From positions 2,647 to 66,646 of the forward strand of contig VGJY01000002.1 of NCBI GenBank assembly GCA_016867235.1: a stretch of 64,000 nucleotides of DNA, in the 5' to 3' direction. The notes below the pieces were generated by a model. The model saw only the letters and a program-made list of their open reading frames with translations. It searched no databases and was not told where the DNA came from. This document shows positions 2,055 to 63,521 of this stretch, one piece after another. Positions within the stretch are counted from its first letter, which is position 1. Each line of letters begins with the position of its first letter. The position numbers and the translations under genes were made by a program. Origin of the DNA: Candidatus Tanganyikabacteria bacterium. Lineage in GTDB: Bacteria; Cyanobacteriota; Sericytochromatia; S15B-MN24; VGJW01.

Positions 2055-3590
2055 TCAGCGCGCGTCCAGCACGCGCAACTGCAGCGCCTCCTTGAGGTCG
2101 TCGGAGCGGATCTCGTCGCGGCCGGCCAGGTCGGCGAGGGTGCGCGCCACCTTGAGCACCCGGTCGTAGGTGCGCGCGGTGAGGCCGAGTTGCCGGATGG
2201 CGCCGGCCAGCACCCGCTCGCTCGCCGCGTCGAGCCGGCAGTGCTGGCGCAGCTCCCGGCCCACCATCTGGCCGTTGCAGACGATCCGGCCGCCGCGGCC
2301 CTGGAACCGCCGGCCCTGCCGGGCCCGCGCCTCGCGCACGCGCTCCCGCACCACGGCGCTGGGCTCGCCCTGCGGCGCGGCCATGATCTGCTCGGCCTCT
2401 AGCCGGGGCACCTCGATGTGCAGGTCGAGCCGATCGACCAGCGGCCCGGAGATTCGCGACCAGTACCGGGCCACGCGATCCACCCCGCACGTGCAGGTCT
2501 TGACGCGATCGCCCGAGTAGCCGCACGGGCACGGGTTCATCGCCGCGGCCAGCGAGAAGTCTGCCGGATATGCGACCGTCGCGCGCGCCCGGCTGATAAC
2601 GACCCGCCTGTCCTCCAGGGGCTGGCGCAGCACCTCGAGCGTGCCGCGCGAGAATTCCCCGAGTTCGTCCAGGAAGAGCACCCCGCGGTGCGCCAGCGAG
2701 ACCTCGCCCGGGCGCGGCGCGCTGCTGCCGCCCACCAGGCCGGCGCACGAGATGCTGTGGTGGGGCGACCGGAATGGCGGGCGGCTCTCGAGGACGCCTC
2801 GCGATTCGAGCAGGCCGCCCACGCTGTATATTGCCGTCACCTCCAGGGCCTCGGGCGGCGTGAGCGGCGGCAGGATCGACGGAATGCGCCGCGCGAGCAT
2901 CGATTTGCCGGACCCGGGCGGGCCGATGAACAGCAGGTTGTGGCCGCCCGCGGCGGCGATCTCGACCGCCCGGCGCGCGCCGGGTTGTCCCTTGATGTCC
3001 GCCAGATCCGCCTCCATCCCGGGCGGCTCGGCCGCCGCGTCGCTCGCGACCTGCTCCGCCGGCCGCACGGCCGCCGGCTCTCGCAGGAAGGCGACCACTT
3101 CCTGGAGGGTCTCGAACGCGAAGACGTCGAGGCCCCCGACCAGCAAGGCCTCGGGCGCGGCCGGACGCGCGACGACCAGGGCCTGGCCCCAGCGCCGCGC
3201 CTCGATCGCCACGGGCAGTACGCCCGCGACCCTGCGGACGGAGCCGTCGAGCGCGAGTTCGCCCAGGAAGACGTAGCGGCCCAGATCCCCGGCGCCGAGG
3301 CTGTCCGCCGCTGCCAGCAACCCGATGGCGATCGGCAAGTCGAAGCCGGGACCGGCCTTGCGCAGGTGGGCGGGCGCCAGGTTGACCGTGATGCGGGTGC
3401 CGGGGGGATCGAACCCCGAGTTTCGCAAGGCCGCCCGGACGCGCTCCTTGCTCTCGTTGACCGCGGCATCGGGCAGACCCACGATGAGGAAGTTGGGCAG
3501 GCCGTTGGCCACGTCCACCTCGACGGCGACGACGACGCCCTGGATGCCCAGGGTCGCCCCTCCGGAAACTGTTGCTTGCATGATTCGCAT
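2055..3590 (-). CDS. comM: YifB/ComM family Mg-chelatase-like AAA+ ATPase
   Basis: Track ORF of 511 aa. It has a Lon-like N-domain, a Walker A motif GPPGSGKSML, the CPCG...C zinc motif and a C-terminal Mg_chelatase_C-like region. Confidence 0.85.
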   Translation of the reverse strand: MRIMQATVSGGATLGIQGVVVAVEVDVANGLPNFLIVGLPDAAVNESKERVRAALRNSGFDPPGTRITVNLAPAHLRKAGPGFDLPIAIGLLAAADSLGAGDLGRYVFLGELALDGSVRRVAGVLPVAIEARRWGQALVVARPAAPEALLVGGLDVFAFETLQEVVAFLREPAAVRPAEQVASDAAAEPPGMEADLADIKGQPGARRAVEIAAAGGHNLLFIGPPGSGKSMLARRIPSILPPLTPPEALEVTAIYSVGGLLESRGVLESRPPFRSPHHSISCAGLVGGSSAPRPGEVSLAHRGVLFLDELGEFSRGTLEVLRQPLEDRRVVISRARATVAYPADFSLAAAMNPCPCGYSGDRVKTCTCGVDRVARYWSRISGPLVDRLDLHIEVPRLEAEQIMAAPQGEPSAVVRERVREARARQGRRFQGRGGRIVCNGQMVGRELRQHCRLDAASERVLAGAIRQLGLTARTYDRVLKVARTLADLAGRDEIRSDDLKEALQLRVLDAR

Positions 3591-3606
3591 TGAATCATGT
3601 CGTCAA

Positions 3607-3715
3607 GGAGTGGGCAAGGCCCTCCCGGCCAGCGCTTCCTGGTAGGCCAGCATCGTCAGGCCGAACATCTGCTGCTTGAAGTCGTCGAGGGAGTTGCCGA
3701 ACGGGGGGAGCGGCA
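3607..3715. repeat. 109-bp perfect direct repeat, copy 1; an orphan duplicate of the 3' end of the gene at 8155-9063
   Basis: It is identical over 109 bp to 8159-8267. On the minus strand it would encode ...PLPPFGNSLDDFKQQMFGLTMLAYQEALAGRALPTP*, the C-terminus of the 302-aa protein. Confidence 0.8.
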
Positions 3716-3830
3716 CACTCGGCTTGACCTGGCTGGGCGAGCTTTGAACTCTGTTGCTAGGGCTGGGGCCGACTCTACCGATCTAGGCGAGGCCACAACC
3801 ACCGTTAGCCCTACCACTGACAGTAGTTGC

Positions 3831-5549
3831 TCAGAACGAGAGCGCCGGTCGGAACCCGAGACCGTCATCGGTCACCGAACGCCCATATCCGAGGACGTGG
3901 CACCAGAGCCCCGCCTTTCCCCCATAGTAAAACGATCCGCCACGCGTCGCCTTCTTGTTGACATCGAGACTCTTTCCAAAGTAATCGCCGGCGAAGTAGT
4001 CAATGGGAGACCCATCGGTGGTCGCTGCCAGGCCGAAACGGCGCAGCTGCGGATCCGTTGCAAGGGTCCTAACGTAGTTTCCTCCCGGCGCGGCCAAGGC
4101 CAGAGCGACGTCAAAGATCATGAAGTATCCCGTGGAAGCGGTCAGGCCAATTGTCTCCGTACGCTCCCACACGTTGCCGTTGAGGTCGAAGACACCTTCT
4201 GTAGTGCCAGTGTGGGTCGTGAGGTTGAGTTTGCCAACCCAACTGCTTGCTGTTGCTGTAGCCGAGCCCGTCAGGGCTCGATCATTGGTTGCCGATCCCC
4301 ACGAAATCGTCGGGTCATCCACGAACGTAATGTCAGGGGAGTCGATATCCCTGGCAACCGGGAAAAAGGTCGTGCTGCTTGTCTCAGCGTTGTTGCCAAA
4401 CACCGAAACGCCATTGATCGTTGCCCAGACTGCCATCGCGGTCCACTCCTCGTCGCGCATCAGATGGGCGTGCGCGTCGTAGGCTAGGCAAGTTTGCGCA
4501 GCAGCATCCCAAGTGATCTGGGTCCAAGGCACGCAGTACCTCGCCACCTTTAGACCGCTGGTGCTCCCGGCCGAAGCGCCTGCGCCGGTCGTTGGGTTCC
4601 CCGGCGTCGCGTCCGACCGGCTAGCTTCGTACTTGCCAGCGTAGAACCCGCCGAAGCGTTCCTCGGCCCAGTCCACGTCCTTGGTCCCGACGGTCGGCCT
4701 GTTGCCCACCCAGTACCCCACCGGCTTGGTCGTGTTGTCGCCGCCGCAGTTGGCCGGAACGATCAACTGGTAGGCCACGAAGTTGGGGATCCAGACAAAG
4801 GTGCTCTGCACGGCGCCCTTGGTCACGATGTAGTCGTGATGCTGCGTCGGGTCGCCGATGTCGTCGGGCGCCAGGTTCCCCAGGATCGTCTGGTAGAACT
4901 GCCCTGTCGTTCCGTTGAATGCCAGGTTCGCGAGCGGATCCAGGTCGGCACTCAGCATCGTCTGGACCAGGCTCTTGGCCTGGTTGAACTCGGCGGCCGA
5001 CCCGTTGGCGACCGGCGAGTACGAGGCGCCATTGACCGATTCGATGAGATCGGCTGCGCTCACTTGCTGCCCGGAGGCCAGCGCGAGTTTGAGCCCGAAA
5101 ATCCCGCATAGCGCGGTCGTGGAGGTGCTCAGCGTTGCCCCTCCGGCGGTGATCGCCTGCCAGGCCGTACCGTTGAAGCGGATCAGCGTCCGCAGCCTGG
5201 CGGCGTGCTTGCCCACGGCATTCGGGCCCAGGCCCTTGACCGCCTCCAGGATGTAGATCCGGTTGACGACCGGTACGTAGGACCCGAACGACAGCGAAAA
5301 TGACCCACCCGCGTCGCTCAGCGTCGTGGCAATCGCCGCACTGGTGGTCGTGTCGACGAAGGCGATGGTCGCCCCGACCGCCACGTCGGCCGCCGTGGCC
5401 AGGACCGTCCGGCGCAGGTCGGCCAGGTCGATGCGCCCGACGATCGGCGGAACTGCCTCGTCCACGTCCGAGGTCCCGGCCGGCCGGCCGGCCGGCGGGG
5501 AACACGCTGCCAGGAGTACGGCAGCCAACAGCGCGGCGAGCAGGTTCAT
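3831..5549 (-). CDS. lipoprotein with C-terminal formylglycine-generating-enzyme (FGE/SUMF1) sulfatase-modifying domain
   Basis: Track ORF of 572 aa. The N-terminus MNLLAALLAAVLLAACS carries a lipobox. The C-terminal half has the FGE hallmarks GNVWE...RGGSF...GFRPA. Confidence 0.7.
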   Translation of the reverse strand: MNLLAALLAAVLLAACSPPAGRPAGTSDVDEAVPPIVGRIDLADLRRTVLATAADVAVGATIAFVDTTTSAAIATTLSDAGGSFSLSFGSYVPVVNRIYILEAVKGLGPNAVGKHAARLRTLIRFNGTAWQAITAGGATLSTSTTALCGIFGLKLALASGQQVSAADLIESVNGASYSPVANGSAAEFNQAKSLVQTMLSADLDPLANLAFNGTTGQFYQTILGNLAPDDIGDPTQHHDYIVTKGAVQSTFVWIPNFVAYQLIVPANCGGDNTTKPVGYWVGNRPTVGTKDVDWAEERFGGFYAGKYEASRSDATPGNPTTGAGASAGSTSGLKVARYCVPWTQITWDAAAQTCLAYDAHAHLMRDEEWTAMAVWATINGVSVFGNNAETSSTTFFPVARDIDSPDITFVDDPTISWGSATNDRALTGSATATASSWVGKLNLTTHTGTTEGVFDLNGNVWERTETIGLTASTGYFMIFDVALALAAPGGNYVRTLATDPQLRRFGLAATTDGSPIDYFAGDYFGKSLDVNKKATRGGSFYYGGKAGLWCHVLGYGRSVTDDGLGFRPALSF

Positions 5550-6814
5550 CAGTACCTTAGCGCTGGTCGGAAGCCCATGTCGTAGCCAGCTTCCAAGCGG
5601 CCAGCTGCGAGCCTGAGAGACCAGAGTCCCGCGCGGCTGCCATTGAGCCAGAGTCCGCCGCGCATGTTCTTAGCATTGAATGACGAACTGTCCCAGAAGT
5701 AGTCACCGCCAAAGAGGGCCGCCGCCGAGCCGGAAGTGACCCCCGGGAGACCATTGCGACGCAGCCGGGGATCGGTGGACAGGCCGCTTACGAAGATCCC
5801 GGCTGGCGCCACAACGGGCAATGTGACGTCATTGATTACATACTTGCCGGTCGACTCCAGCCCAACCGTTTCGGAATACTCCCAAACGTTGCCATTGGCG
5901 TCGAAAACGCCATCTGTCGTCCCCGTGTGCGTCGTGAGATTCACGATTCCAGACCACGTGCTGCGCGTAGCCGACGCCGTCAGGGCCCTGTCCTTGCCGC
6001 TCACATTCCACCCGTAGGTCGGGTCGTCGAGGAAGGTAATCTGCGGGTCGTCAATGTCCGCGGGTGCCGCGGGGCTAGCTAGCGCCTACGTCTGTCTCGG
6101 AGTTGTTTCCGTGGACCGTGATGCCGTTGATCGTCGCCCAGACGGCCAAGGTGGTCCACTCGTCGTCTCTAATCAGATGGCAGTGCGCGTCGTAGGCCAG
6201 GCAAGCGAGGGCGGCCTGCTCCCAAGAGAGTTAGTTAGTCCACGGCACACAATACTGCGCCACCTTGAGCGTGCTGCTGCTGCCGGCCGTGGCGCCCGCG
6301 CCCGTCGCTGGATTTCCCGGAGTCGCGTCTGCCCGGCTGGCCTCGTACTTGCCGGCGTAGAACCCGCCAAACTGCTCCCGCGCCCAGTCGACGTTCTGAT
6401 AGCGCCGCTCAGTTGGCCTCGCCCCGCGCGCGCCCACAGGCCCCGGGCCGCAGCGTACTCGGCGCGTACGTGAGGCACGGGGCCGCGGACGTAAGCCGGG
6501 GCCAGGTCAAGTGAGCGGTGCTATCAGTCCCCGTGCTCGGCTGGATCGCCACCCAGTAGCCGACCGGCTTGGTCGTGTTGTCGCCCCCGCAGTTGGCCGG
6601 CACGATCAACTGGTATGCCATGAAGACCGGGATCCACACGAACGTGCTCGCCACCCCGCCCTTCGTCACGATGTAGTCGTGATGCTCGGCCGGCCGGAAG
6701 CGACGCGAGGTCCACCGCCCCGACCAGTGGCAGGATGCCGGCGGGCGACGGGACCGGCGTGGCGAGGGAAGCACAGCCACCCAGCACGACGCCGGCGAGG
6801 AGCGCGCCTCGCAA
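5549..6814 (-). pseudogene. decayed paralogue of the FGE-domain lipoprotein
   Basis: The 5549..6004 ORF aligns to the C-terminal FGE region of the neighbouring gene. Fragments at 6231..6437, 6409..6864 and 6524..6814 align to the middle and N-terminal parts. The frame is broken by in-frame stops around 6074-6090 and 6226-6241 and by a 127-bp insertion near 6396-6522. About 200 aa of the N-terminal half are missing. Confidence 0.65.
6396..6527. mobile_element. 127-bp insertion with imperfect 15-17 bp inverted termini (MITE-like) inside the pseudogene
   Basis: The termini ctgatagcgccgctcag and gtgagcggtgctatcag are near-perfect inverted repeats. The segment is absent from the intact paralogue at the homologous site. 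Its length is not a multiple of 3, so it shifts the frame. Confidence 0.35.
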
Positions 6815-7040
6815 CCTCGCAACCTCGCACTACGTAAGCACCCGCCAGGTAATGATGTTTCCATGTCCAGTACCTTTCTTTACCCGGCCCTGGCGCGAGC
6901 AGGCATTCGTACGGGCCGCCAGAACGACCAAACCTTGGGAAGCAGGTCGAGACCACGCGGTCGCCAGCACAGCCACTCGGGATTGAATCCGCAATCGGCA
7001 GGCACCGCGTCCTGGCTTCGGCCGCCCGCAGCGGCAACTC

Positions 7041-7076
7041 CGTCATGGAGGTGGCAAGGCCCTCCCGGCGAGCGCC
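7041..7076. repeat. degenerate third copy of the core of the 109-bp repeat
   Basis: ggaggtggcaaggccctcccggcgagcgc here matches ggagtgggcaaggccctcccggccagcgc in the repeat. Confidence 0.4.
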
Positions 7077-7179
7077 TCGTGGCTGGTTGCTCAACGCGTC
7101 ACTGAGGGAGCTGCGCCTGGGTTCCGACGTCGATCTCGGCCGGAGATGACACCGCCGCGGGTCCGAGAACGCCGCGAGG

Positions 7180-7539
7180 TCAGGCGAATTCCAGGAAGTT
7201 GGCAGGTGCGTAGAGCCGGCGCTTCCTGAGAGGGGGCGGGGACTCGGCCTCGCACTGCATTCGCAAGTTCTTCATCGTCTCGGCCGATCGCAGGAGGAAA
7301 AACGGCTCCGGTAGCGGACCGACCTTGGCCGTCCAGGGCGGCGCGGCCTGCCCACAACGATCCGCAAGCAACTCGGCGAGCGCAGCCGCCAAGGCGAGCA
7401 ATCCAGGGTCGCTCACATCGTGTGGCGCTTCCCAGTCGCTGATCGACGGCCGCTCGCGCAAGAGATCCTGCACGAGAGATCTCACGGCCAGGGCGTCTCT
7501 GGCGAGTGCCGCCCTGGCCACCTCGTCCAGGCTAGCCAT
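7180..7539 (-). CDS. hypothetical protein (119 aa), downstream partner of the NTase-fold gene
   Basis: Track ORF. Its ATG overlaps the stop of the upstream gene in a cATGGctag arrangement, which suggests a translationally coupled pair. Confidence 0.45.
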   Translation of the reverse strand: MASLDEVARAALARDALAVRSLVQDLLRERPSISDWEAPHDVSDPGLLALAAALAELLADRCGQAAPPWTAKVGPLPEPFFLLRSAETMKNLRMQCEAESPPPLRKRRLYAPANFLEFA

Positions 7540-8158
7540 GGGCTTCCTCCCAGAGATCGTCGAAAGCGTATTGCGCCTTCAGTTCTGTTCCGGGTGGCAA
7601 GAACCGGCTGACGGCACCCCAGACTACTTCCTTGGCACCAAGGCCCATGGTTTCTTGTAGCAGGATCCTCGCATCCGAGACGTCGACGTCATCTCGCCAG
7701 GCACAGAGCTTCATCGCCAGGAGCTGTGATGCGCCCGGTCTCCGTACTTCGATTCCTGGGAAAGCCAACACGACCGGCCCGTCGCTGATGCCCACCAGAT
7801 ACCCCTTGGCGCCGTCGTTTAGCCAGTCGGCAGGCCAGCCGTACTCCTCTGCCACGAGTCCCACCAGATCGCGCAACGCCGATGTCGAGGCTGCGTCCAA
7901 TGCGATGGCGTCAACGTCTTTGGTCGAGTCTCTGGCATCGAAGGCAAGGGCCATCAAAGCCCCACCGACCAGAAGCAGCCTCAGCTCCACGCCGCGAGCG
8001 GCGGCCAGGGCTCCAAGGCGCTCAAGTGCCGAGCGGATCTCGGCCTTCGTGAGTGTTGCCACAAGGTCAACTATAAACCCGGTCGCTGAATCGTTCCGTG
8101 GCCTTCCCGGGGCCAGCCGCCCAGGCCTTGCTCGAGGCGCAGCAGGGAAGAAGGTCAC
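7532..8158 (-). CDS. nucleotidyltransferase-fold protein (minimal NTase motif), DUF6036-like
   Basis: Track ORF of 208 aa. The VGGALMALAFDARDSTKDVD stretch fits the hG[GS]x9-13Dx[DE] polymerase-beta/MNT signature. The true start may be internal. Confidence 0.4.
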   Translation of the reverse strand: MTFFPAAPRARPGRLAPGRPRNDSATGFIVDLVATLTKAEIRSALERLGALAAARGVELRLLLVGGALMALAFDARDSTKDVDAIALDAASTSALRDLVGLVAEEYGWPADWLNDGAKGYLVGISDGPVVLAFPGIEVRRPGASQLLAMKLCAWRDDVDVSDARILLQETMGLGAKEVVWGAVSRFLPPGTELKAQYAFDDLWEEAHG

Positions 8159-9063
8159 GGAGTGGGCAAGGCCCTCCCGGCCAGCGCTTCCTGGTAGGCC
8201 AGCATCGTCAGGCCGAACATCTGCTGCTTGAAGTCGTCGAGGGAGTTGCCGAACGGGGGGAGCGGCATCTTGAACGTGCGCTCCCGCTCCCCGCCCGGCT
8301 TGATGACCGTGACGTCCACGACCGGAATGGCCGGATCCCAGCGCTCCACGAAGGTGCGCGGCTCGCCCGTCAGGTAATTGACCTCCTTGCGCACCGCGAG
8401 GCGCAACTCGGGCAGGCCCGTCGCCGGATCGGTGGTCAGTTCGGCCTCGTACCCGCGGTCGATCGGCAGCAGCGGGATGCGGCTCAGGAAGGCCTCCAGC
8501 GGCGAAGGCGTGGCGACCCAGGTGATGGGCGGGACGAACGAACCGGAGGCCGAGGCGCTCGCCGGCAGGCTCGTCACCTGCTCGGTGCCCGTGCTCTCGG
8601 GAGTCGTGGGGTAGAAGCGGTGGGCGTTTTCGGCCACCACCTTGTCCACGGCCTTCGTGAGGGCGCTTGCCGAACTGGCCGACAGCCCGAGTTGTTGCAG
8701 GCGCTTGACCATCAATTGCGCCTTGGCCTCGTCCACCCGTTGCAGCGCCGGATTCAGCTTCTTGTACTCGGCCAGCTCCTTGGGCGGCACGGTAGGCGTC
8801 GGCCGGGGCGTGGGCGTCGGGGCCGGGGGCCGGGGCGTCGCCGCCGCCGACCGATCCGGGTAGGCGATGGGGCTCTCGCGGCGCGGCTCATCGGCTCTTG
8901 GCGCCGGCCTGGGCAGATCCACCAGGCGTACCAGCGGCGGGATACTGGGTGCCGGGCTTGCCGCCCGCGGGCCGCGCACGCGCAGCAGGGCCACGCCCAC
9001 GACCAGCAGCGCCAACCCCAGGTGGACGGCGACCGACGCGCCGAGCCACCGCTTCTTGATCAT
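8155..9063 (-). CDS. single-pass membrane protein with Pro-rich linker; hypothetical
   Basis: Track ORF of 302 aa. A TM segment near the N-terminus is followed by a PTPTPRPTPT linker. The 3' end of the gene is copy 2 of the 109-bp repeat. Confidence 0.6.
   Translation of the reverse strand: MIKKRWLGASVAVHLGLALLVVGVALLRVRGPRAASPAPSIPPLVRLVDLPRPAPRADEPRRESPIAYPDRSAAATPRPPAPTPTPRPTPTVPPKELAEYKKLNPALQRVDEAKAQLMVKRLQQLGLSASSASALTKAVDKVVAENAHRFYPTTPESTGTEQVTSLPASASASGSFVPPITWVATPSPLEAFLSRIPLLPIDRGYEAELTTDPATGLPELRLAVRKEVNYLTGEPRTFVERWDPAIPVVDVTVIKPGGERERTFKMPLPPFGNSLDDFKQQMFGLTMLAYQEALAGRALPTP
8159..8267. repeat. 109-bp perfect direct repeat, copy 2; the native 3' end of the 8155-9063 gene
   Basis: Identical to 3607-3715. 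Confidence 0.8.
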
Positions 9064-27218: not shown

Positions 27219-27307
27219 TGAAGCCTCCTCGGGGGGGTGCCGCCCCCCCGAGCCCCCCCGCAATGCCATCCGTGACGCTCCGCCGGGCGTCCCTGCCCGG
27301 CGTGGGG
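27219..27307 (-). promoter_or_regulatory. structured 5' leader element, copy 1
   Basis: It shares about 80 nt with 32905-32990. A 10-bp hairpin CUCGGGGGGG/CCCCCCCGAG overlaps the SD GAGGAGG. A second hairpin at 27281-27302 shows compensatory changes relative to copy 2. Confidence 0.55.
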
Positions 27308-27439
27308 GTTGCACAGCGGTGCCGGCGAAGCTGTTTGATCGCGCACTGCCTCGCATTATAGGGGAAAGGTACGGATAAGGACCGGTTAACCTTTGCCTAA
27401 GTCGCGTCAGGCGAGGCCCTCTCCGGCCGACATTTCCAG

Positions 27440-32904: not shown

Positions 32905-32990
32905 AGCCTCCTCGGGGGGGTGCCGCCCCCCCGAGCCCCCCCGCAGTGTCGTCCGTGACGATCCGCCGGACATCCCTGTCCGGCGAGGGG
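32905..32990 (-). promoter_or_regulatory. structured 5' leader element, copy 2
   Basis: Same G7/C7 hairpin and SD as copy 1. The hairpin at 32964-32985 carries compensatory G-C to A-U substitutions. Confidence 0.55.
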
Positions 32991-33042
32991 CGCGTGCACC
33001 GGTGTCGGCGCAGCCGGTGAACAACTCATATGACGGACATCA

Positions 33043-48575: not shown

Positions 48576-51281
48576 CTAGCCCGTGTAGGGCACCGGCGGC
48601 ATGCTCACCGGATAGCTGGGTGCCGGGCCGTAGCCCTCGGCCTGCCGCAGGACCGTGGCGATGGCCTCCTCGGTGTCCGCGCAGCCGATGACGACCAGAT
48701 CGCCCTCGCGGGCCAGGCTCATGCCGTAGTTGATGGACTCGGCCTCCTGGAGCACCACGTGCAGGCGTTCGGCGGAGAAGTTCGCGCTCTCGACGCCGCG
48801 CTTGATGACCCCTGCGACCTCGCCCGCCTGCCGGCCGCGCAGATCGGTCATCTCGCGCACCACCAGTTCGTCGAAGGTGCCGGCGCAGATGCGCCCGACC
48901 TCTTCGAGTTTCTCGTCGTAGCGGTCGCCCGGCGCGGTGATCACGCCGATGAGGCGCCGCCGTTCCATCTGCGCCACGGTCTCGCAGATGGCGCGATAGG
49001 AATCGGGATTGTGGGCGTAGTCGATCAAGACGGTGAAATCGCGCACCCGCACCATGTTGAGGCGGCCCGGGTTCTGGTCGATGGTGCTCTGGAACGACGC
49101 CACGCCGCTCACGATCTGGTCGTGCGAGAGGCCCGCATGGATGAGGATTGCCACCGCCGCCAGCAGATTCTCGACGTTGTGGCGGGCGCGGCCGCGCAGG
49201 GTCACCGGGATGCGTTCGACCTCCACCAGGGGCATCCGGTGCTCGCCGACCGCGACCATGATCATGTTGCGCCGCAGGTACACCGCCGTCCCGCCCTTCA
49301 TCAGGTGATCCTCCACGACGGGATGGCGGTCCTCGGTCGAGAAGAACGTCACCTTGGTGCCCTCGGGCGCCTCCTGGGCCATCTCGCGGCAGTGGGCGTC
49401 GTCGGCGTTGAGGACCGCGTGGCCCTTGGCGCGCTGCACGAGCAAGCGCTTCACGCGGGCGAGATCTTCCAGGCTCTCGGCGCCATGCTGGCCGAGGTGA
49501 TCGTCGCGGATGTTGAGCACGGCGCCGACATCGCACCACTCGAATGCCATGCCGCGCTTGAAGAGGCCCCCGCGGGCGGTCTCGAGCACGGCGAACTCGC
49601 ACTGGGGATCGGTCAGCACCGTCCGCGCCGACCAGTAGCCGGTGCAATCCCCCTTCACGACTCGCTTGCCGTCGAGGTAGATGCCCTCGGTGGTGGTGAC
49701 GCCGACGCGGATGCCGGCCTGGCGGATGGCGTGGCCCACCAGCAAGGCGGTGGTGGTCTTCCCGTTGGTGCCGGTGATCGCCACGATCGGGATGCGCGTG
49801 GGGCTGCCGGGCGGGTAGAGCATGTCGATGATGGCGGCGCCGACGTCGTGGGGTTCGCCCTCGCTGGGATGCTGGTGCATGCGGATGCCGGGGGCGGCAT
49901 TCACCTCGATGATGGCTCCGCCCTGCTTGTCCAGGGGCTGGGAGATGTCCTCGACCACCACGTCGATGCCGGCGACGTCCAGTCCGACCTTCTTGGCGGC
50001 GCGGACGGCCATCACCGCGTTTTCCGGGTGGATCTGATCGGTCAGGTCGATGGCCGTCCCGCCGGTGGACAGGTTGGCGTTGCTGCGCAGGAGCACCATG
50101 GCGCCCTCGGCCGGGACGCTGTCGGGCGTGCAACCCTGCTTTTGCAGGACCTCGACGACGTTGCCGTCGATCTTGAGCTTGGTCAGGGGCTTTAGATGGC
50201 CGGTGCCGCGGCGCGAATCCGTATTGGCCTCCTCCATGAGCTGCTTGATGGACTGCCTGCCGTCGCCGATCACGTGGGCGGGCAAGCGCCGGGCCACCGC
50301 CACCACGCGATCGCCCACCACGAGCACGCGGTGGTCCTGGCCCTTGATGAACTCCTCGACGAGCACGCTGCGGCCGTACTCGCGGGCGAGATGGAAAGCG
50401 GCCTCGACGTGGGCCGGATCGGACACGTTGACCGTGACGCCCTTTCCCTGGTTGCCGTAATGGGGCTTGACGGCCACCGGCCTGCCCATGCGCCGCGACA
50501 CCGCCAGCGCCTCCTCCACCCGCGTGACCACCTCGCCGCGGGGGACGGGCAAGCCCGCCTCGCGCAGGAGCGCGTTGGTCAGATCCTTGTCCGACGCGAT
50601 ATCGACCGCGATGTGGCTCGTCTCGCTGGTGAGCGCCGCCTGGATGCGCCGCTGGTAGCGGCCGTAGCCAAGCTGGAACAGCGACGCCTCGTCGGTCACC
50701 CGGAACGTGGGGATGCCGCGCCGCGCCGCGGCCTCGACGATGGCCGCGGTGCTGGGCCCGAGGCTGTGGCGCTTGGCCCAGTAGCGCAGGTTGTCGAGAT
50801 CCTCCGCGATATCGAGCATCTCCCCGCGGCACAGCGACTCGACGATGCGGATGCCGACCCACACGGCCTCCTGGACGACCTTCTCGAGCTTGTACGACAC
50901 GACGATCTGGTAACAGCCAGGATGCCGCTTGACCTCGCGGGCCTTCCCGTAGCCCACGTCGACGCCCGCCAGGCACTGCAACTCGATGATGGTGTGCTCG
51001 AGGATGTGCGCCATGTAGGTGCCTTCGTGGAGGCGTTCCACGAAGCCGCCGCGGTAGCCGCGGGAGCAGCGGTGATCCCCCAGCGTCGGGATCAGGTCGA
51101 CCATCTTGTCGGCAAAGCCCGGGAAATCGGTCGACGGCCGGTCGTACAGCTCCTGGAGATCGACCACGAGCAAGTAGGCGGGCCGGGGGCTGTAGAGGTT
51201 GGGACCGCGCAGGACGCGCCTCTCCAGGACCTTGATGGGCAACTTGGGGATCTCCTCTCGACGGCCGCGGGAAGTCGCCAT
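48576..51281 (-). CDS. cphA: cyanophycin synthetase
   Basis: 901 aa with an ATP-grasp N-terminal half and a Mur-ligase-like C-terminal half (ITGTNGKTTT). Confidence 0.85.
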   Translation of the reverse strand: MATSRGRREEIPKLPIKVLERRVLRGPNLYSPRPAYLLVVDLQELYDRPSTDFPGFADKMVDLIPTLGDHRCSRGYRGGFVERLHEGTYMAHILEHTIIELQCLAGVDVGYGKAREVKRHPGCYQIVVSYKLEKVVQEAVWVGIRIVESLCRGEMLDIAEDLDNLRYWAKRHSLGPSTAAIVEAAARRGIPTFRVTDEASLFQLGYGRYQRRIQAALTSETSHIAVDIASDKDLTNALLREAGLPVPRGEVVTRVEEALAVSRRMGRPVAVKPHYGNQGKGVTVNVSDPAHVEAAFHLAREYGRSVLVEEFIKGQDHRVLVVGDRVVAVARRLPAHVIGDGRQSIKQLMEEANTDSRRGTGHLKPLTKLKIDGNVVEVLQKQGCTPDSVPAEGAMVLLRSNANLSTGGTAIDLTDQIHPENAVMAVRAAKKVGLDVAGIDVVVEDISQPLDKQGGAIIEVNAAPGIRMHQHPSEGEPHDVGAAIIDMLYPPGSPTRIPIVAITGTNGKTTTALLVGHAIRQAGIRVGVTTTEGIYLDGKRVVKGDCTGYWSARTVLTDPQCEFAVLETARGGLFKRGMAFEWCDVGAVLNIRDDHLGQHGAESLEDLARVKRLLVQRAKGHAVLNADDAHCREMAQEAPEGTKVTFFSTEDRHPVVEDHLMKGGTAVYLRRNMIMVAVGEHRMPLVEVERIPVTLRGRARHNVENLLAAVAILIHAGLSHDQIVSGVASFQSTIDQNPGRLNMVRVRDFTVLIDYAHNPDSYRAICETVAQMERRRLIGVITAPGDRYDEKLEEVGRICAGTFDELVVREMTDLRGRQAGEVAGVIKRGVESANFSAERLHVVLQEAESINYGMSLAREGDLVVIGCADTEEAIATVLRQAEGYGPAPSYPVSMPPVPYTG

Positions 51282-51605
51282 GGTAGCTCAGGCCGCGTCT
51301 TTATTGAACTTTTAACACAAGGAATCGTGACTTAACGCCCATAACACTCCCGGGGTAGCACAGGTGGTGGGGTAACTCGGAGATGTTCAGATCGTGTCCT
51401 GACATGTGGCCGCATCTGCAGCGGCCGGAGAAGTCGGCCGAGGCGGCCGTGGGTCGCCGAACGCGCACGATGCCGCTGGTTCTGGACGAGGTGCGCGAGA
51501 TCGTGGAGTCCAGCTTGCGGCGGGCGCCGCGGCGGGCGCGCACCAGGGAGCTGCGGCTGCTGTTCTCGTCTTGAGGCCTCGCGGCTCGGGGGGCCGTCCG
51601 GACGC

Positions 51606-52517
51606 CTAGGGGCGCGGCGCGATTGACCGCTGCCGCTCGGCCTGGGCCTCCGACTGGATGCCGATCGCGGGCCAATCCGGTTCGGGACAGCCGCAGCGCC
51701 AGTCCGCGCCTAGCGGCACGCGATTCTCGATGTTGAACGCCATCCCGGCGGGCAGCATGTGGAGCCGTACGTTCATCATCGCCAGCAACTCGCCCGTCTC
51801 GGCGGTCGTGACGTTGGAGTTGCCGATCTCGCGGCCGTCCAGGATGGTCACCATCCCACTGCCGACGATGCGGAAGTCGTAGTTCGGACAGACCACCATC
51901 GCCGTGTTCTCGTCGATGCCCAGCCCCAGGATGAACGGGTTCTGGGCCACTATCGACAGCAAGCGTCCCAGTCGCTGCCGCTGCAGGAAGTGCTGATCGA
52001 CGACCACGCGCCGCAGGAAGCCCAGGCCGGGGGCCAGGTGCAACATGTGCTTGCGCGGGTGCAGGCCCATGCCCCCCTCGGCGATCATGTGTTCGCTGAT
52101 GGCACTCGCCCCCGCCGACGTGCCTGCGATGGTGAGGCCGCGCTTGTGTGCGCGGTGCATGGCCTTGGCGACCTCGGTACCTCCCAGGATCGACGAGATC
52201 CGGTTCTGGTCGCCGCCCGTCAGGAAGACGCCGGTGCTTGCATACACCAGGTCGGCGTGGGCGGGATCGTTGGCCTCCTCTCGCGAGTCGATCGGCAGGT
52301 ATTGCACCTCGGCGGCGCCAAGAAGCTTGAACAGCCGCGCGTAGGTCTGCCACTTGGCCTCGGCGTTCAGCGAAGCCGTGGGGACGACCACGATGCGGGC
52401 GTTGCGGCCACCGGCGATGTCCACGACCGAGGCGAGGATGGGACTGTCGATTTCCTTGGACTCGGCCCCGCCGATGAGGATCAGGTGGCCGCGGCGATTC
52501 GGCGCATCAATGGTCAT
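51606..52517 (-). CDS. cphB: cyanophycinase (peptidase S51)
   Basis: An internal ATG gives MTIDAPNRRGHLILIGGAE. The motif GTSAGASA and a Ser-His-Glu triad context are present. Confidence 0.8.
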   Translation of the reverse strand: MTIDAPNRRGHLILIGGAESKEIDSPILASVVDIAGGRNARIVVVPTASLNAEAKWQTYARLFKLLGAAEVQYLPIDSREEANDPAHADLVYASTGVFLTGGDQNRISSILGGTEVAKAMHRAHKRGLTIAGTSAGASAISEHMIAEGGMGLHPRKHMLHLAPGLGFLRRVVVDQHFLQRQRLGRLLSIVAQNPFILGLGIDENTAMVVCPNYDFRIVGSGMVTILDGREIGNSNVTTAETGELLAMMNVRLHMLPAGMAFNIENRVPLGADWRCGCPEPDWPAIGIQSEAQAERQRSIAPRP

Positions 52518-52545
52518 GCAAGGCGGATCATACCCGCCCGCGGCC

Positions 52546-53004
52546 TCAACCGCTCTTCGAGATCGTGCGCGAGTGGTCGGCCAGCGACGCGGCGAGCGAC
52601 TCCAGGCCCAGGAACAGCCACTTCCGCTCGGCCGGGGGCAGATCGAGCACGTGACTCGCGCGATTGAGGTCGAGGGTGACCCCAGCGCCACGCGCTTCTT
52701 CCAGCGTCTCCCACTCCTCGTCCGTCAAGGGGTGCTTGCCCGCGGTAGGCCGGCAATCCACGACCTCGAGCCGCGGCTCCTCGCCGCGGGCGACACGGAA
52801 CAGGAACTCGGCATCCACGCGCAGGCCATGGGCGAGTTTCTGCAGGGTGTCGAGCGAGGGGGCCTTCGTGACGCGGCCGACCATGATGTTGGCCAGCGTG
52901 CCCGGATTAAGGCCGGAGAGCCGAGCGAGCTCATTCTGGCTGATCCCCAGCTCCGCTCGGCGGACCCGGATAAAGGCCACGAGACGATCTACAGCGGATT
53001 TCAT
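52546..53004 (-). CDS. XRE-family helix-turn-helix transcriptional regulator
   Basis: ELGISQNELARLSGLNPGTLANI is an HTH_3-type motif. The gene is 28 nt upstream of cphB on the same strand. Confidence 0.7.
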   Translation of the reverse strand: MKSAVDRLVAFIRVRRAELGISQNELARLSGLNPGTLANIMVGRVTKAPSLDTLQKLAHGLRVDAEFLFRVARGEEPRLEVVDCRPTAGKHPLTDEEWETLEEARGAGVTLDLNRASHVLDLPPAERKWLFLGLESLAASLADHSRTISKSG

Positions 53005-58259: not shown

Positions 58260-59432
58260 TCAGCCGGCCCGGGTCGGGACCCTCTGCGGCTCGGGCGCGA
58301 GACGGGCGAAAAACAGGAACTCCCGCACTTCGTCCCCGGAGTACGAGCGCACTGCGCTGTCGCTGTCCGCCCGGAAACGCTTGTACGCGACCTCCCGGAA
58401 GTCCACCGCCACGGCCCGGCGCGCCAGTTCCTCCCGTAGCACGTCCTCGGGGATCAGGCCCTCGTTGCTGTACGACACCAGGACGTGATCGGCCGCGACG
58501 CCATCCAGGATGCTCGCGAGGGCCGCCGCGGCCGCCGGGCGGCGGCAGAACCGGGAATTCTGCTCGTCGGGCCGCAGCCCGGTCTTGCCGCGCGGGGTGA
58601 AGGAGCCCAGATCCCAGCGGGCGAGCGTTTCCAGGATGTGGTAGTAGGCGTTGTACTGCCGCTGATTGTAGGGCGGATCCAGGTACAGGACGTCGAACCG
58701 CCGGCCCCGGAAGCCCGAGACGAGTCTGGCGATATCGGCGCAGTGCGCCTCGTGGCGCGTGCCGGGAGCAGCGCGCCCGATCGCCGGGATTCGCAATGCC
58801 AAGGGGGCGCGCGCGCTCTTCTTGACGTGCTTCAGGAACGCGGCGTAGACGCTCGCGGTGTTCGCCACCTGGTCCGCGCTCTCCAGGAGGCTGGATAGCA
58901 GGACGCAACTCTCGCCGGTCGTGACGAGGCCGGCGCCTTCCCACGCCGCGATAAGGTCCCGGATGGCCTCGCAGCGCGCCCCGTTGTCGGCCGAGAAGTA
59001 GTTGCGGCCGGCCGAGCCGCCCTCGCAGTATGCGTCGCAGAACCCCGCTGCGCGGCCCGGCAGGGCGTCGAGCCAGGCGAGCACCCGAACAAGCGGCCCC
59101 ATGCCCGCGAGGTCCCTGTCGCGCAGCAGGCCGAAGCGACGCGCCCGACGCTCGTAATCGGCCACCAAGGCGTCCGGGACCCGGATCTCGCCGTGGAGCC
59201 CCGCGAATGCCGGCGGCCCGTCCTGCACCAGGAAGCACTGCTGGAGGACGTAGGAGTAGTGCTGCAGGTCGTTGGAGACCGTCGAGAAGCCCATAGCCTT
59301 CGCGAGTTGGCCCACGACGGCCGTGCCCGCGAAGGCGTCGAGGAAGGTCCCGCCCGCGCGGTCGAGGCCGTGCGCGGCCAGGACGCCGCGGATCTCCGCC
59401 AGGAGGCTGTGCTTGCTGCCGATGTAGTTCAT
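58260..59432 (-). CDS. D12-class (Dam-like, alpha group) N6-adenine DNA methyltransferase
   Basis: The N-terminus MNYIGSK is D12 motif I, and LYLDPPYN is motif IV. 390 aa. The start overlaps the upstream stop in an ATGA arrangement. Confidence 0.75.
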   Translation of the reverse strand: MNYIGSKHSLLAEIRGVLAAHGLDRAGGTFLDAFAGTAVVGQLAKAMGFSTVSNDLQHYSYVLQQCFLVQDGPPAFAGLHGEIRVPDALVADYERRARRFGLLRDRDLAGMGPLVRVLAWLDALPGRAAGFCDAYCEGGSAGRNYFSADNGARCEAIRDLIAAWEGAGLVTTGESCVLLSSLLESADQVANTASVYAAFLKHVKKSARAPLALRIPAIGRAAPGTRHEAHCADIARLVSGFRGRRFDVLYLDPPYNQRQYNAYYHILETLARWDLGSFTPRGKTGLRPDEQNSRFCRRPAAAAALASILDGVAADHVLVSYSNEGLIPEDVLREELARRAVAVDFREVAYKRFRADSDSAVRSYSGDEVREFLFFARLAPEPQRVPTRAG

Positions 59433-59980
59433 GGCTCGGTGTGCCCTTCAGACAGTAGCAGGTCGCGAGCCTGGACGATAGCCCTGAAGTAGCGGACGGC
59501 CTCGGGATCGTCGGGATTGAGGTCCGGATGGAAACGCTTGGAGAGTTCGCGGAACGCGCGGCCGACCGCATCGGGCGAGAGATCGTCCTCGAGGTGGAGC
59601 ACGCCGGCCGCCCACGACCGGCCGCCCTTCCGCAGGCTGTCGAGGCGGGCGCGCAGCTCCTCGATCTCGGCCTGATACGCCAGCTCGCGCTCGGTGGCCT
59701 CCGAGAGCTGGATGGACAGCTTCTGACGCCCCTGCTGGCTCGCGGTCAGCGCCACGCGCAGGGCGTCCACTTCGGAAGTCTGGGGAGCCAGTTCGGGGGT
59801 AGGAGGCGCGTGCGCCACCAGGCGCTCCAGCAGGCCCGTCCGGGTCAGGCCGTAGTTGGCGGCGAGCGTCTCGAGCTGGATGAGGGTCTCGGCGGCGAAG
59901 CGAAATGACACGAGCCGTGCCGGCTCGCCGGTGATGGACTTGGCCGGGGGCTTGCCCCCCCGGTACCCGCCGCGAGGCAT
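59429..59980 (-). CDS. ribbon-helix-helix (Arc/CopG-like) DNA-binding domain fused via coiled coil to a C-terminal J-domain (DnaJ, HPD motif)
   Basis: 183 aa. The N-terminal part PARLVSFRFAAETLIQLETLAANYGLTRTGLLERLV has the RHH beta-alpha-alpha pattern. The C-terminal part FRELSKRFHPDLNPDDPEAVRYFRAIVQARDLL is a J-domain with an HPD motif. Confidence 0.55.
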   Translation of the reverse strand: MPRGGYRGGKPPAKSITGEPARLVSFRFAAETLIQLETLAANYGLTRTGLLERLVAHAPPTPELAPQTSEVDALRVALTASQQGRQKLSIQLSEATERELAYQAEIEELRARLDSLRKGGRSWAAGVLHLEDDLSPDAVGRAFRELSKRFHPDLNPDDPEAVRYFRAIVQARDLLLSEGHTEP

Positions 59981-60025
59981 CTTGAGTCTGTATATACACA
60001 CGAACCCTCGCGTACTATCTAGTTC

Positions 60026-61696
60026 ATGACTCGCCCGCCCGAACAGACGCTGATGCGGCCGGCCGAACGCGATCGGGAGACCAGGCGCGCGCTCGGGGCG
60101 TTCTACACCTCGGACGCGCTGGCGCGCAGTGTCACCGCGAAGGCCCTGGGGTTCTGGGGCGGATCGGGCGTTCCGTCGTCCCTCGATCCGGCATGCGGCG
60201 ATGGGGCGTTCCTGCTTGCACTTGAAGAACTGGGCGTCGCCGGGTCCGGCGACGGGGCGGCGCGCTGCGGCATGGACGTCGATCCGGCGGCGATCGCCGC
60301 TGCCCGGGTGCGCCTGGGCGACGCCCCCGACCTGGTCCTGGCCGACGGACTGGATCCGACCGTGTTTCCGGGCCGCCGGTTCGATCTGGTTCTGGGCAAC
60401 CCGCCGTTCGGCCTGCCGCGGGACGATGCCCGCGCCTGGGGCCTCGCGGCCAAGCGCACCGATTCCTATGCCTGCTTCCTCGCGATGGGCCTCAGACGCC
60501 TGGCGCCAGGAGGTGTCCTGGGGTTCATCACCGCCGACACGTGGCTGTCGATCCGCTCGCACGGCGCCTTGCGCGATCTGCTCCTCCCCCACCTGCTCGC
60601 CGTGGACCTCCTGCCCCCGGGCGCCTTCGACGCGACCGTCGGCACTTGCGCGGTGTACCTGCGGGCCGACCCGGTGCGCGGGCCGATCGCCGTGACGGAC
60701 CTGGCGGGGCGCCGGTACGCCATCGGGCGCGACACGGTCGCCTCTTTGCCTGGACACACCCTCTTCGTGGGCCGCCCCGGCCTGGCGGATCTGCTGGCCG
60801 CGGGCACCGTCCGGCCCGAAGAAGTCGCACCCGGCCACGCCGCGCCCGTGCGAACGCTCCGGCGAGGGGAACGGGACATCCGGCTGGTGCGGCTGGGCGA
60901 CATCGCCGCCACCCCGCACGGCATCTCGACCGGCCAGAACGCCCGCTACGTCCGCGCGGTGCCCGGGATCTCGGGGCGCTACCTCCCGCTCGAGCCGCGC
61001 ATGGCGATGCCGCCCGGGCGCCTGGAGAGCCTCACCGAAGCCGAGAAGCGCGGCGGCGTGGCCGGGGACTGGGAGGATGGCACCGGCTGCTACGTGCCGT
61101 TCGACAAGGGCGCCGCGGCCGATGCCGGCGCGGGCTGGCTGCCGAACTACTTCGTCCCTTGCGGCTACTACCTCAACTGGGCCGAAGGCGCCCTGGCCGA
61201 CATGCGCCGCAATCCCGGCTTCGCGTGGAAGAACAGTCGCTACTTCTTCCGCCGAGGCCTGACGTTCTCGGTCTCGGGCGCGTACGCCCCGACGTTCCGC
61301 CTGGGTGCCGGCGGGGTCTTCGAGGCCAAGAGCTCCGGGCTCTTCTGCGACGTCCTGCCGCCCGAATTGCTGCTGGCCATCCTCTGCAGCCGCGTCGCTC
61401 GCTACCTGTTCAAGGTCTTCATCAAGCACTCGGTGGACACCAGCGGGGCCGACGTGGCGCGCTTTCCGCTCGTGCTGCCCGATCCGGCCGTCCGCGACCG
61501 TATGATCGCGCTCGTGGGCCAGATCATCGCCGCGCAGCGGCGGGACCCGGCCTACCCGTACCAGCACCGCGAGCAGCCCGAACTCGACGCCCTGGCGGCC
61601 CGAGCCTACGGCCTCTCGGACGAAGAGGTCGCCGAGATAGACGCGTGGTTCGCCGCCCGCTACTCGAAGCTGGCGGCGGCGCAATCGCGACGCTGA
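60026..61696 (+). CDS. gamma-class N6-adenine DNA methyltransferase (Eco57I/TaqI-like) with C-terminal target-recognition region
   Basis: 556 aa with motif X GAFYTSD, motif I DPACGDGAFL and motif IV LVLGNPPFG. Confidence 0.7.
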   Translation: MTRPPEQTLMRPAERDRETRRALGAFYTSDALARSVTAKALGFWGGSGVPSSLDPACGDGAFLLALEELGVAGSGDGAARCGMDVDPAAIAAARVRLGDAPDLVLADGLDPTVFPGRRFDLVLGNPPFGLPRDDARAWGLAAKRTDSYACFLAMGLRRLAPGGVLGFITADTWLSIRSHGALRDLLLPHLLAVDLLPPGAFDATVGTCAVYLRADPVRGPIAVTDLAGRRYAIGRDTVASLPGHTLFVGRPGLADLLAAGTVRPEEVAPGHAAPVRTLRRGERDIRLVRLGDIAATPHGISTGQNARYVRAVPGISGRYLPLEPRMAMPPGRLESLTEAEKRGGVAGDWEDGTGCYVPFDKGAAADAGAGWLPNYFVPCGYYLNWAEGALADMRRNPGFAWKNSRYFFRRGLTFSVSGAYAPTFRLGAGGVFEAKSSGLFCDVLPPELLLAILCSRVARYLFKVFIKHSVDTSGADVARFPLVLPDPAVRDRMIALVGQIIAAQRRDPAYPYQHREQPELDALAARAYGLSDEEVAEIDAWFAARYSKLAAAQSRR

Positions 61697-61821
61697 GGCG
61701 CGCCCTCACGGCCGGCTGCGTGAAGATTTGACTTTTTTCCTATCTTAACCGTTTCGGGTATTGCTTGACAGTATCCGATCGGCGCATCCTCGAACATACA
61801 TTTCAGAAAGGATGCGGTGAC

Positions 61822-63446: not shown

Positions 63447-63521
63447 ATCGCGGCCGGCACGGAGGCCGGCCCCACCCGTTGCATCGGTGGCGCAGGCCTC
63501 CGTGCCTGCGTCCGATAGGCG
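63447..63521. repeat. REP-like element, inverted copy
   Basis: Its reverse complement, aggcctgcgccaccgatgcaacgggtggggccggcctccgtgccggccgcgatgccggag, matches the unit at 1976-2030. Confidence 0.55.

Follow-up and report, generated by a model that had tools for sequence, protein, structure and literature searches.

A 64-kb stretch of genome from a Candidatus Tanganyikabacteria bacterium (contig VGJY01000002.1; the whole stretch is called the window below) was analyzed around the junction between comM and a gene for a 302-amino acid (aa) membrane-anchored protein. The stop codon of the 302-aa gene is separated from comM by an inserted segment of 4,552 bp, here called the islet, and comparison with related loci points to its horizontal acquisition. 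The islet holds two cargo modules, a nucleotidyltransferase (NTase) gene pair next to the 302-aa gene and an FGE-like lipoprotein gene with its pseudogene next to comM. Copies of the 3′ end of the 302-aa gene stand at both borders and between the modules. All three copies are co-terminal, and no recombinase gene is present in the islet. The segment is an insertion and not an old duplication in place: related lineages have empty sites, the third-position base composition of the islet genes is foreign, and the NTase module has relatives in other phyla. All genes of the islet region are on the minus strand.

Three copies of one gene end

The two outer repeat copies (copy 1 next to comM and copy 2 in the 302-aa gene) were aligned. 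They are identical at 113 of 114 nucleotides (nt), and the match is uninterrupted over the 109 nt (3607-3715 and 8159-8267) that an earlier reading of the same DNA, the initial annotation, had described as perfect. The lone mismatch is at the third base of the last codon (CCT versus CCG) and is followed by a common TGAC that includes the stop. Local alignments of the flanks on either side of the outer repeat borders detected no residual similarity (z < 1). Copy 2 is the real 3′ end of the 302-aa open reading frame (ORF; 9063-8155), and the orphan copy 1 would specify the same 36 C-terminal residues, as had been proposed.

The degenerate third copy noticed earlier inside the islet is real and extends over 42 nt (7041-7082), 36 of which are identical to the gene end. 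Its in-frame reading is ...HEALAGRALPPP followed by a stop. Five of the six differences fall at third codon positions (binomial P about 0.018), four of the six are synonymous, and copy 3 retains both the stop at the same place and the terminal Pro of the family. Because the differences are mainly third-position or synonymous and the stop position is kept, copy 3 looks like the once-working terminus of a diverged allele rather than a randomly decayed duplicate. It splits the cargo into the two blocks that the initial annotation had delineated.

Across the window there are exactly three occurrences of the 17-mer GGCAAGGCCCTCCCGGC, against an expectation of 0.15; none of 100 shuffled sequences reached three. 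Searches with blastn-short and tblastn found no gene-end copy in the window beyond these three. Folding of the repeat was not significant (z-score of -1.1).

The junction is empty or differently occupied in related lineages

The 302-aa protein belongs to a small family. Only 8 homologues were found among 5.8 billion proteins, the protein matches no Pfam family, and neither a single-protein scan nor a scan with the family alignment (A1) detected relatives in the GTDB representative genomes. Database records contain neither the exact 302-aa protein nor P0134, which left both without a contig position. The C-terminus (...LLAYQEALAGRxLxxP) is the best-conserved part of the family in alignment A1. 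Every contig with a 302-aa homologue has the gene order AMP-binding, MBL, Band7, UDG, hydrolase, 266 aa, 81 aa, 395 aa, 302 aa, comM, M50B, 223 aa, and the 15 flanking genes are collinear in every related locus.

Empty sites, in which the gene runs straight into comM, were found in four lineages. The distance between the 302-aa homologue and comM is 22 nt in the closest relative (L005, 69% identity in the target protein), 42 nt in L006, 65 nt in L003/L004, and 68 nt in L034. The last of these was the one true relative among 22 matches to a degenerate AYQEALAGR pattern in a metagenome scan. The spacer is 257 nt in L007 and 70-119 nt in L008. In L001/L002 the two genes are separated by an unrelated 613-aa gene, which has an AT-rich upstream region of its own and no repeats at its flanks; in L001 it shows neither a gene-end duplication nor similarity to the islet. 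The islet genes are absent from all contigs carrying a 302-aa homologue. The same junction is thus empty, occupied by the 613-aa gene, or occupied by the islet in different lineages, and the joint varies across the clade. Two of the checks proposed earlier, for empty sites and for other cargo at the same gene end, gave positive answers, and they bear out the proposal of an insertion at a gene terminus.

The sequence downstream of copy 1 (GATTCAATGCGAATCATGCAAGC) equals the native gene-end/comM junction of L005, so copy 1 together with comM represents the ancestral arrangement. The gene now reads through copy 2 to its stop, and copy 1 keeps the native junction.

Each gene end is followed by a comM-leader box

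Alignment of the comM upstream regions (A2) identified a GAT(T/G)(T/C)AAT motif 6-10 nt upstream of the comM ATG in all relatives, including L005, L006, L001, L003, L007, and L034. The window has only two GATKYAAT sites, one in the native comM leader and the other 53 nt past the copy 3 stop. The shorter GATTCA has six minus-strand sites in the whole window, three of which lie 6, 53, and 62 nt past the three stops. Every gene-end copy is therefore followed by a comM-leader box, a feature that the initial annotation had missed.

The approximately 55-nt spacers between gene end and box match the leaders of L003 and L034, and the cargo modules start just where comM would start. The modules probably carry fossil "gene end plus leader" junctions from lineages with longer leaders. 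Because the incoming termini precede comM-leader boxes, the modules can be read as earlier residents of orthologous junctions in related lineages.

A AACGATTC motif lies 20 nt past the stop in L001 and resembles the box after copy 2. In the 257-nt spacer of L007, TGACCCGGAA stands at the stop codon and TGACCCGAAA follows 144 nt later (6380-6533); this may be a very small insert between 10-nt repeats, or the match may be due to chance. The 613-aa gene of L001 (5483-8000) has no Pfam family and contains a 15-nt tandem repeat, and its AT-rich upstream region is promoter-like.

Composition and gene content of the islet

GC content at third codon positions (GC3) is 0.70-0.80 in the islet genes versus 0.89-0.94 in all flanking host genes. 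Pfam and PADLOC searches of all islet ORFs detected no recombination, mobilization, or conjugation genes, in agreement with the earlier statement that neither an integrase nor a transposase is present. Islet DNA had no match in the plasmid collection, and Rfam, promoter, and terminator scans of the islet returned nothing significant. Coordinates are collected in Table 1.

Table 1 Coordinates of the islet, its repeat copies, and the adjoining genes in the window
Feature	Positions	Strand	Basis or remark
comM, Mg-chelatase-like AAA+ competence protein	2055-3581	-	Pfam matches; ancestral downstream neighbor of the target gene
Native comM leader	3578-3598	-	Perfect 8-bp palindrome CATGATTC-AATGC-GAATCATG, spanning the leader box and the comM start codon
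Repeat copy 1 (attR-like)	3602-3715	-	Displaced orphan 3′ end, still attached to the native comM leader
Islet tail, 115 nt	3716-3830	-	Resembles none of the sequences tested; meets copy 1 at the novel right-hand joint
Intact 572-aa FGE/SUMF1-like lipoprotein	3831-5549	-	Family membership; protein P0129 of the metagenome-assembled genome (MAG) is 100% identical
FGE-like lipoprotein pseudogene	5549-6814	-	tblastn matches in three frames; collinear with intact gene 1 of L010
Fossil comM-leader box GATTCAAT	6982-6989	-	53 nt downstream of the copy 3 stop codon
Degenerate copy 3 (attI-like)	7041-7082	-	Last 12 codons and stop of a diverged target-gene allele (probable)
119-aa helical NTase partner	7180-7539	-	8-nt overlap with the NTase gene
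DUF6036/DUF2204-type nucleotidyltransferase, 176 aa	7532-8062	-	Homologue lengths, weak Pfam matches
Spacer, 91 nt after the target-gene stop	8063-8153	-	Partial comM-leader box and -10-like hexamer
Partial comM-leader box GATTCAGCGA	8083-8092	-	Within the spacer after copy 2
Repeat copy 2 (attL-like)	8154-8267	-	Functional last 36 codons and stop of the 302-aa gene
Target gene, 302-aa membrane-anchored protein	8155-9063	-	ORF; conserved family, function unassigned

The module proximal to the 302-aa gene is an overlapping gene pair. The NTase has 2611 homologues, mostly of 176-178 aa, which cover 85% of the 208-aa ORF listed for this gene, and the alignment to P0011 begins at residue 33. The start was therefore placed at GTG 8062, and the listed ORF is over-extended. 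A TATAGT -10-like hexamer lies in the preceding spacer 7 nt upstream of this GTG. The Pfam matches to DUF6036/DUF2204 are below the Pfam cut-off and PADLOC gave an AbiEii match at 5.8e-5; homologues carry PF19502/PF09970, and those on plasmids are annotated DUF6036. The same overlapping pair lies downstream of proB in another organism (L014-L017), with an NTase 62% identical and a partner of 118 aa that is 55% identical. The partner has 262 clusters in the representative library. The NTase and 119-aa genes make up a conserved two-gene module that is toxin-antitoxin-like. Relatives of the 119-aa partner with 287 aa were checked as possible NTase fusions and are not fusions. PDB sequence searches with three cargo proteins gave no usable match, and a single-sequence AlphaFold model of the partner (pLDDT of 51) was not used. 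The 97 nt before copy 3 (7083-7179) were considered as a relic of the comM 5′ end on the basis of a pairwise z of about 3, but neither a hidden Markov model of the comM N-terminal protein sequence nor nhmmer recovered them, and this origin was rejected.

The distal module belongs to an FGE/SUMF1-like lipoprotein family that is strongly expanded in Sericytochromatia, with at least eight paralogues in the same MAG. The 572-aa protein itself has no Pfam match, falling under all thresholds; more distant family members carry PF03781. The adjacent pseudogene is 76-83% identical to the intact gene, has a lipobox start near 6814, has lost about 190 internal codons, and is frameshifted at least twice. 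An intact collinear FGE pair at 70% nucleotide identity is present in L010 in a different genomic context, and the tandem therefore pre-dates this insertion. The expansion of the family (P0130-P0137, P0170, P0192) includes tandem arrays of 3-4 on other contigs. A paralogue identical to one of this population is present in Logan run SRR7985589.

The comM start (ATG 3581) was inferred from the conserved MQ(A/S)TV N-terminus. The palindrome and leader box at this start could be a regulatory site or a translational hairpin. In the orphan copy 1 (3603-3717, minus strand) an in-frame GTG stands at the 5′ edge where the gene has ATG (Met266), which gives a possible 37-codon mini-ORF ending 21 nt before the comM ATG. 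This mini-ORF might preserve translational coupling to comM.

Proposed assembly of the islet

The arrangement is best explained by serial Campbell-type (single-crossover) insertions of circular DNA. Every circle would have brought a copy of the final codons of the target gene, and recombination would have taken place within one short core, which reads GCCGGGAGGGCCTTGCC on the coding strand. An insertion would keep the gene intact with the incoming terminus and push the previous terminus distally. The resulting order would be the observed one: gene end (copy 2), NTase module, old terminus (copy 3), FGE module, native terminus (copy 1), and comM. The modules would earlier have occupied the orthologous junction in related lineages and acquired that junction there. 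The recombinase would be encoded outside the islet; on this scheme the likeliest agent is a trans-acting integrase of the tyrosine or serine type, and the islet would be a tandem of elements like the cis-mobilizable elements (CIMEs) described below. The sequence comparisons show the insertion, its boundaries, the three co-terminal copies, and the lack of a recombinase gene in the islet, and from them we infer the circular intermediates, the order of events, and the enzyme.

On the Campbell model, the differences flanking the copy 3 core place the older crossover in an identity block of about 17-20 nt. A crossover block of this size is att-core-like and short for RecA. Two successive insertions at an att-like core, as suggested by the initial annotation, fit copy 3 and a crossover in the 17-nt block; the joining by a site-specific integrase that this suggestion implies is a proposal. 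Site-specific recombination by an enzyme encoded elsewhere is the favored origin of the islet, with chances judged to be about even.

Several observations weigh against an integrase. Pfam scans of the islet ORFs and of about 50 larger ORFs of the window (a few short or overlapping ORFs were unscanned) detected no domain of an integrase, resolvase, or transposase, and the non-coding gaps of the islet, at most about 230 nt, are too short for a recombinase remnant. A search of IMG/VR with the degenerate gene-end pattern and the 17-mer returned chance 17-19-mers only and no attP-bearing element. No arm-like sequences are common to the four module boundary segments, and no gene-end repeats flank the NTase module in L014 and L011 or the FGE paralogue in L063. 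The 109-bp perfect identity is long for an att identity segment and suits homologous recombination; gene conversion or Campbell integration by RecA would equally produce it. The leader-like sequence that follows the incoming termini is easier to explain as chromosomal DNA of relatives than as a dedicated attP. The nearest database relative has only 69% protein identity, so no one-module intermediate is visible, and the window is a MAG contig.

Many of these observations fit an origin by homology alone. Junction DNA of relatives would have been taken up with its cargo, circularized or illegitimately joined, and integrated by RecA via the conserved gene terminus. The 109-bp repeat would then be the length of homology on the incoming fragment, and the site would resemble a hotspot of minimal mobile elements (MMEs). 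The perfect identity with sharp ends, the conservation of the gene terminus, which as the best-conserved stretch across lineages is a natural anchor, and the different cargo or none at the same junction across lineages all favor this explanation, as does the failure to find an integrase among the scanned window ORFs. The leader boxes 53-62 nt from the incoming termini, like the 55-nt leaders of L003/L034, also indicate pieces from orthologous loci. A plain double crossover, however, replaces rather than duplicates, and a circular intermediate or an unusual ends-in event is needed. The crossover at copy 3 in about 17-20 nt of identity is under the usual RecA requirement if the flanking differences pre-date the event, and all three copies end at exactly one point. 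Homology alone is less likely than site-specific recombination but is a serious rival as the origin of both the insertion and the hotspot-like behavior of the site.

The junction of the 302-aa gene and comM may also be a dedicated landing pad on which cassettes are stacked without a cassette-borne or dedicated integrase, a speculative proposal that we consider improbable. On this proposal each cassette would bring or copy a "gene end plus comM-leader box" unit and so end behind its own comM upstream signals. A recombination activity encoded by the host, and possibly linked to competence, would recognize the conserved palindromic leader or the 17-nt core.

An assembly or strain-mixture artefact would leave the true chromosome empty and make the 4.4-kb block a separate circle or another locus sharing 109 bp. 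The contig is metagenome-assembled, an exact repeat of 109 bp does not reach the length of typical reads plus flanks and may be resolved wrongly at small k, and P0129 and P0009 each occur on one contig with no second assembly for comparison. Even a circle, however, requires both novel joints (gene-repeat-spacer and tail-repeat-leader), and the block has no replication gene. Lengths of 109 or 114 nt are unlike common assembler k values, and the window sequence contains no N. The T/G difference beside the repeat and the distinct downstream flanks are those expected of a true attL/attR pair, and the internal copy 3 and the decayed pseudogene point to a long chromosomal history. An artefact is judged unlikely.

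An old segmental duplication of the 3′ region of the gene in place, followed by divergence, had been named as the alternative in the initial annotation. Tandem duplication is present in the block in the form of the FGE gene and pseudogene, but this pair exists intact in another context in L010. The empty sites in four lineages, the atypical GC3 of the cargo, and the relatives of the NTase module in other phyla contradict such an event, and a perfect repeat is unlike an old one; this origin is highly improbable. A transposon- or casposon-like insertion would account for direct repeats around an insert as a target-site duplication, but 109 bp is far above known duplications of this kind, the ends have no inverted repeats, a transposase is lacking, and the internal third copy is unexplained, which leaves this origin barely credible.

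The perfect 109-bp repeats are predicted from their sequence to make the islet excisable by RecA at present.

Comparison with known integrative elements

At the 3′ ends of genes, integrase-less elements that retain att sites are known to accrete in tandem, and decay is most advanced in the element most distant from the target (PMC7563491, PMC6323972). Among them are the CIMEs, which occupy streptococcal target genes such as fda, rpsI, rpmG, and tRNA-Lys (PMC7563491, PMC6323972). Like CIMEs (1-13 kb), the islet is small, consists of cargo only, and lacks integrase and transfer genes. In both, the bordering direct repeats come from the target gene's 3′ end (113 of 114 nt here), tandem arrangements have an internal att copy, and the more decayed element lies farther from the target, which in the islet is the FGE module with its pseudogene. 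Four lineages related to the islet host have the empty attB. The islet differs from CIMEs in having no known integrative and conjugative element (ICE) or integrative and mobilizable element (IME) as partner, no known integrase for the site, and no remnant of ICE/IME descent: the two cargo modules fill the whole 4.5 kb, and no integrase-bearing relative was found in viral contigs or plasmids. Its outer repeat is a perfect 109 bp rather than a few tens of bp, its incoming termini bear a fossil downstream leader, and its host is an uncultured member of Sericytochromatia.

The e14 element supplies a new end to icd in Escherichia coli and leaves the icdC fragment distally (PMC13626634). In both e14 and the islet the insert gives the target its working last codons and the native C-terminal fragment is left at the far end. 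The replacement and native ends of icd differ mainly by conservative or synonymous changes, as do copy 3 and the gene end. In contrast, e14 is a prophage of 15 kb that encodes its own integrase and is excised on SOS induction; the islet ORFs include no phage genes and no integrase beside the att-like sites, and the two outer copies are identical. Phage 21 likewise integrates in icd of E. coli. The identity segment of the element SLP1 is probably 112 bp long. Actinomycete integrative elements (AICEs) recombine via identity segments common to attP and attB (PMC2440964).

Two further systems share features with the islet. In Neisseria, MMEs are alternative cassettes between two conserved genes that are exchanged by transformation and flanking homology. 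MMEs and the islet both place variable cargo or none between two conserved syntenic genes and have no mobility genes. They differ in that duplicated gene ends do not define MMEs and stacked termini need insertion, not replacement. Prochlorococcus islands have repeated tRNA 3′ ends at their borders and degenerate internal copies. Repeated use of one att-like site would give full border repeats and decayed internal copies in both cases; the islet is distinguished from these islands by a protein-coding terminus as target, its tiny size, and the lack of a phage-like integrase gene nearby. The islet, small and integrase-less with att-like duplications of a gene terminus, adds an instance to known classes and is not a new class.

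As a case of gene gain the locus is clean and datable, and it comes from Sericytochromatia, a poorly sampled, uncultured, non-photosynthetic sister group of cyanobacteria; to our knowledge almost nothing is known of mobile DNA in this group. The stacked termini are a record of the order of acquisition, and the fossil leader boxes indicate that the cassettes probably moved between orthologous sites of diverged lineages. A trans-acting recombinase for the core, if found, would define the first integrative system of this clade. If no such recombinase exists, the locus illustrates homology-driven cassette stacking.

Other features of the window

A GC-rich element of about 50 nt (GGCCTGCGCCACCGATGGGGG...) occurs as two tandem copies just downstream of comM (1932-2024) and once more 61 kb away (63460-63512); it looks like an intergenic repeat of the REP type. 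A 110-nt direct repeat with 85% identity (27222-27331 and 32905-33014) lies in the 5′ parts of an arginase-family ORF and of a 442-aa ORF for an unknown protein, 5.7 kb apart, and suggests a common N-terminal segment. At 58260-63417, a D12-class N6-adenine methyltransferase, an Eco57I-like methylase, and a 550-aa unknown protein with a lower GC3 (0.77) form a DNA methyltransferase cluster that may be a restriction-modification island. A cyanophycin synthetase gene adjoins a gene for an S51 (cyanophycinase-like) peptidase at 48576-52691 in this non-photosynthetic relative of cyanobacteria.

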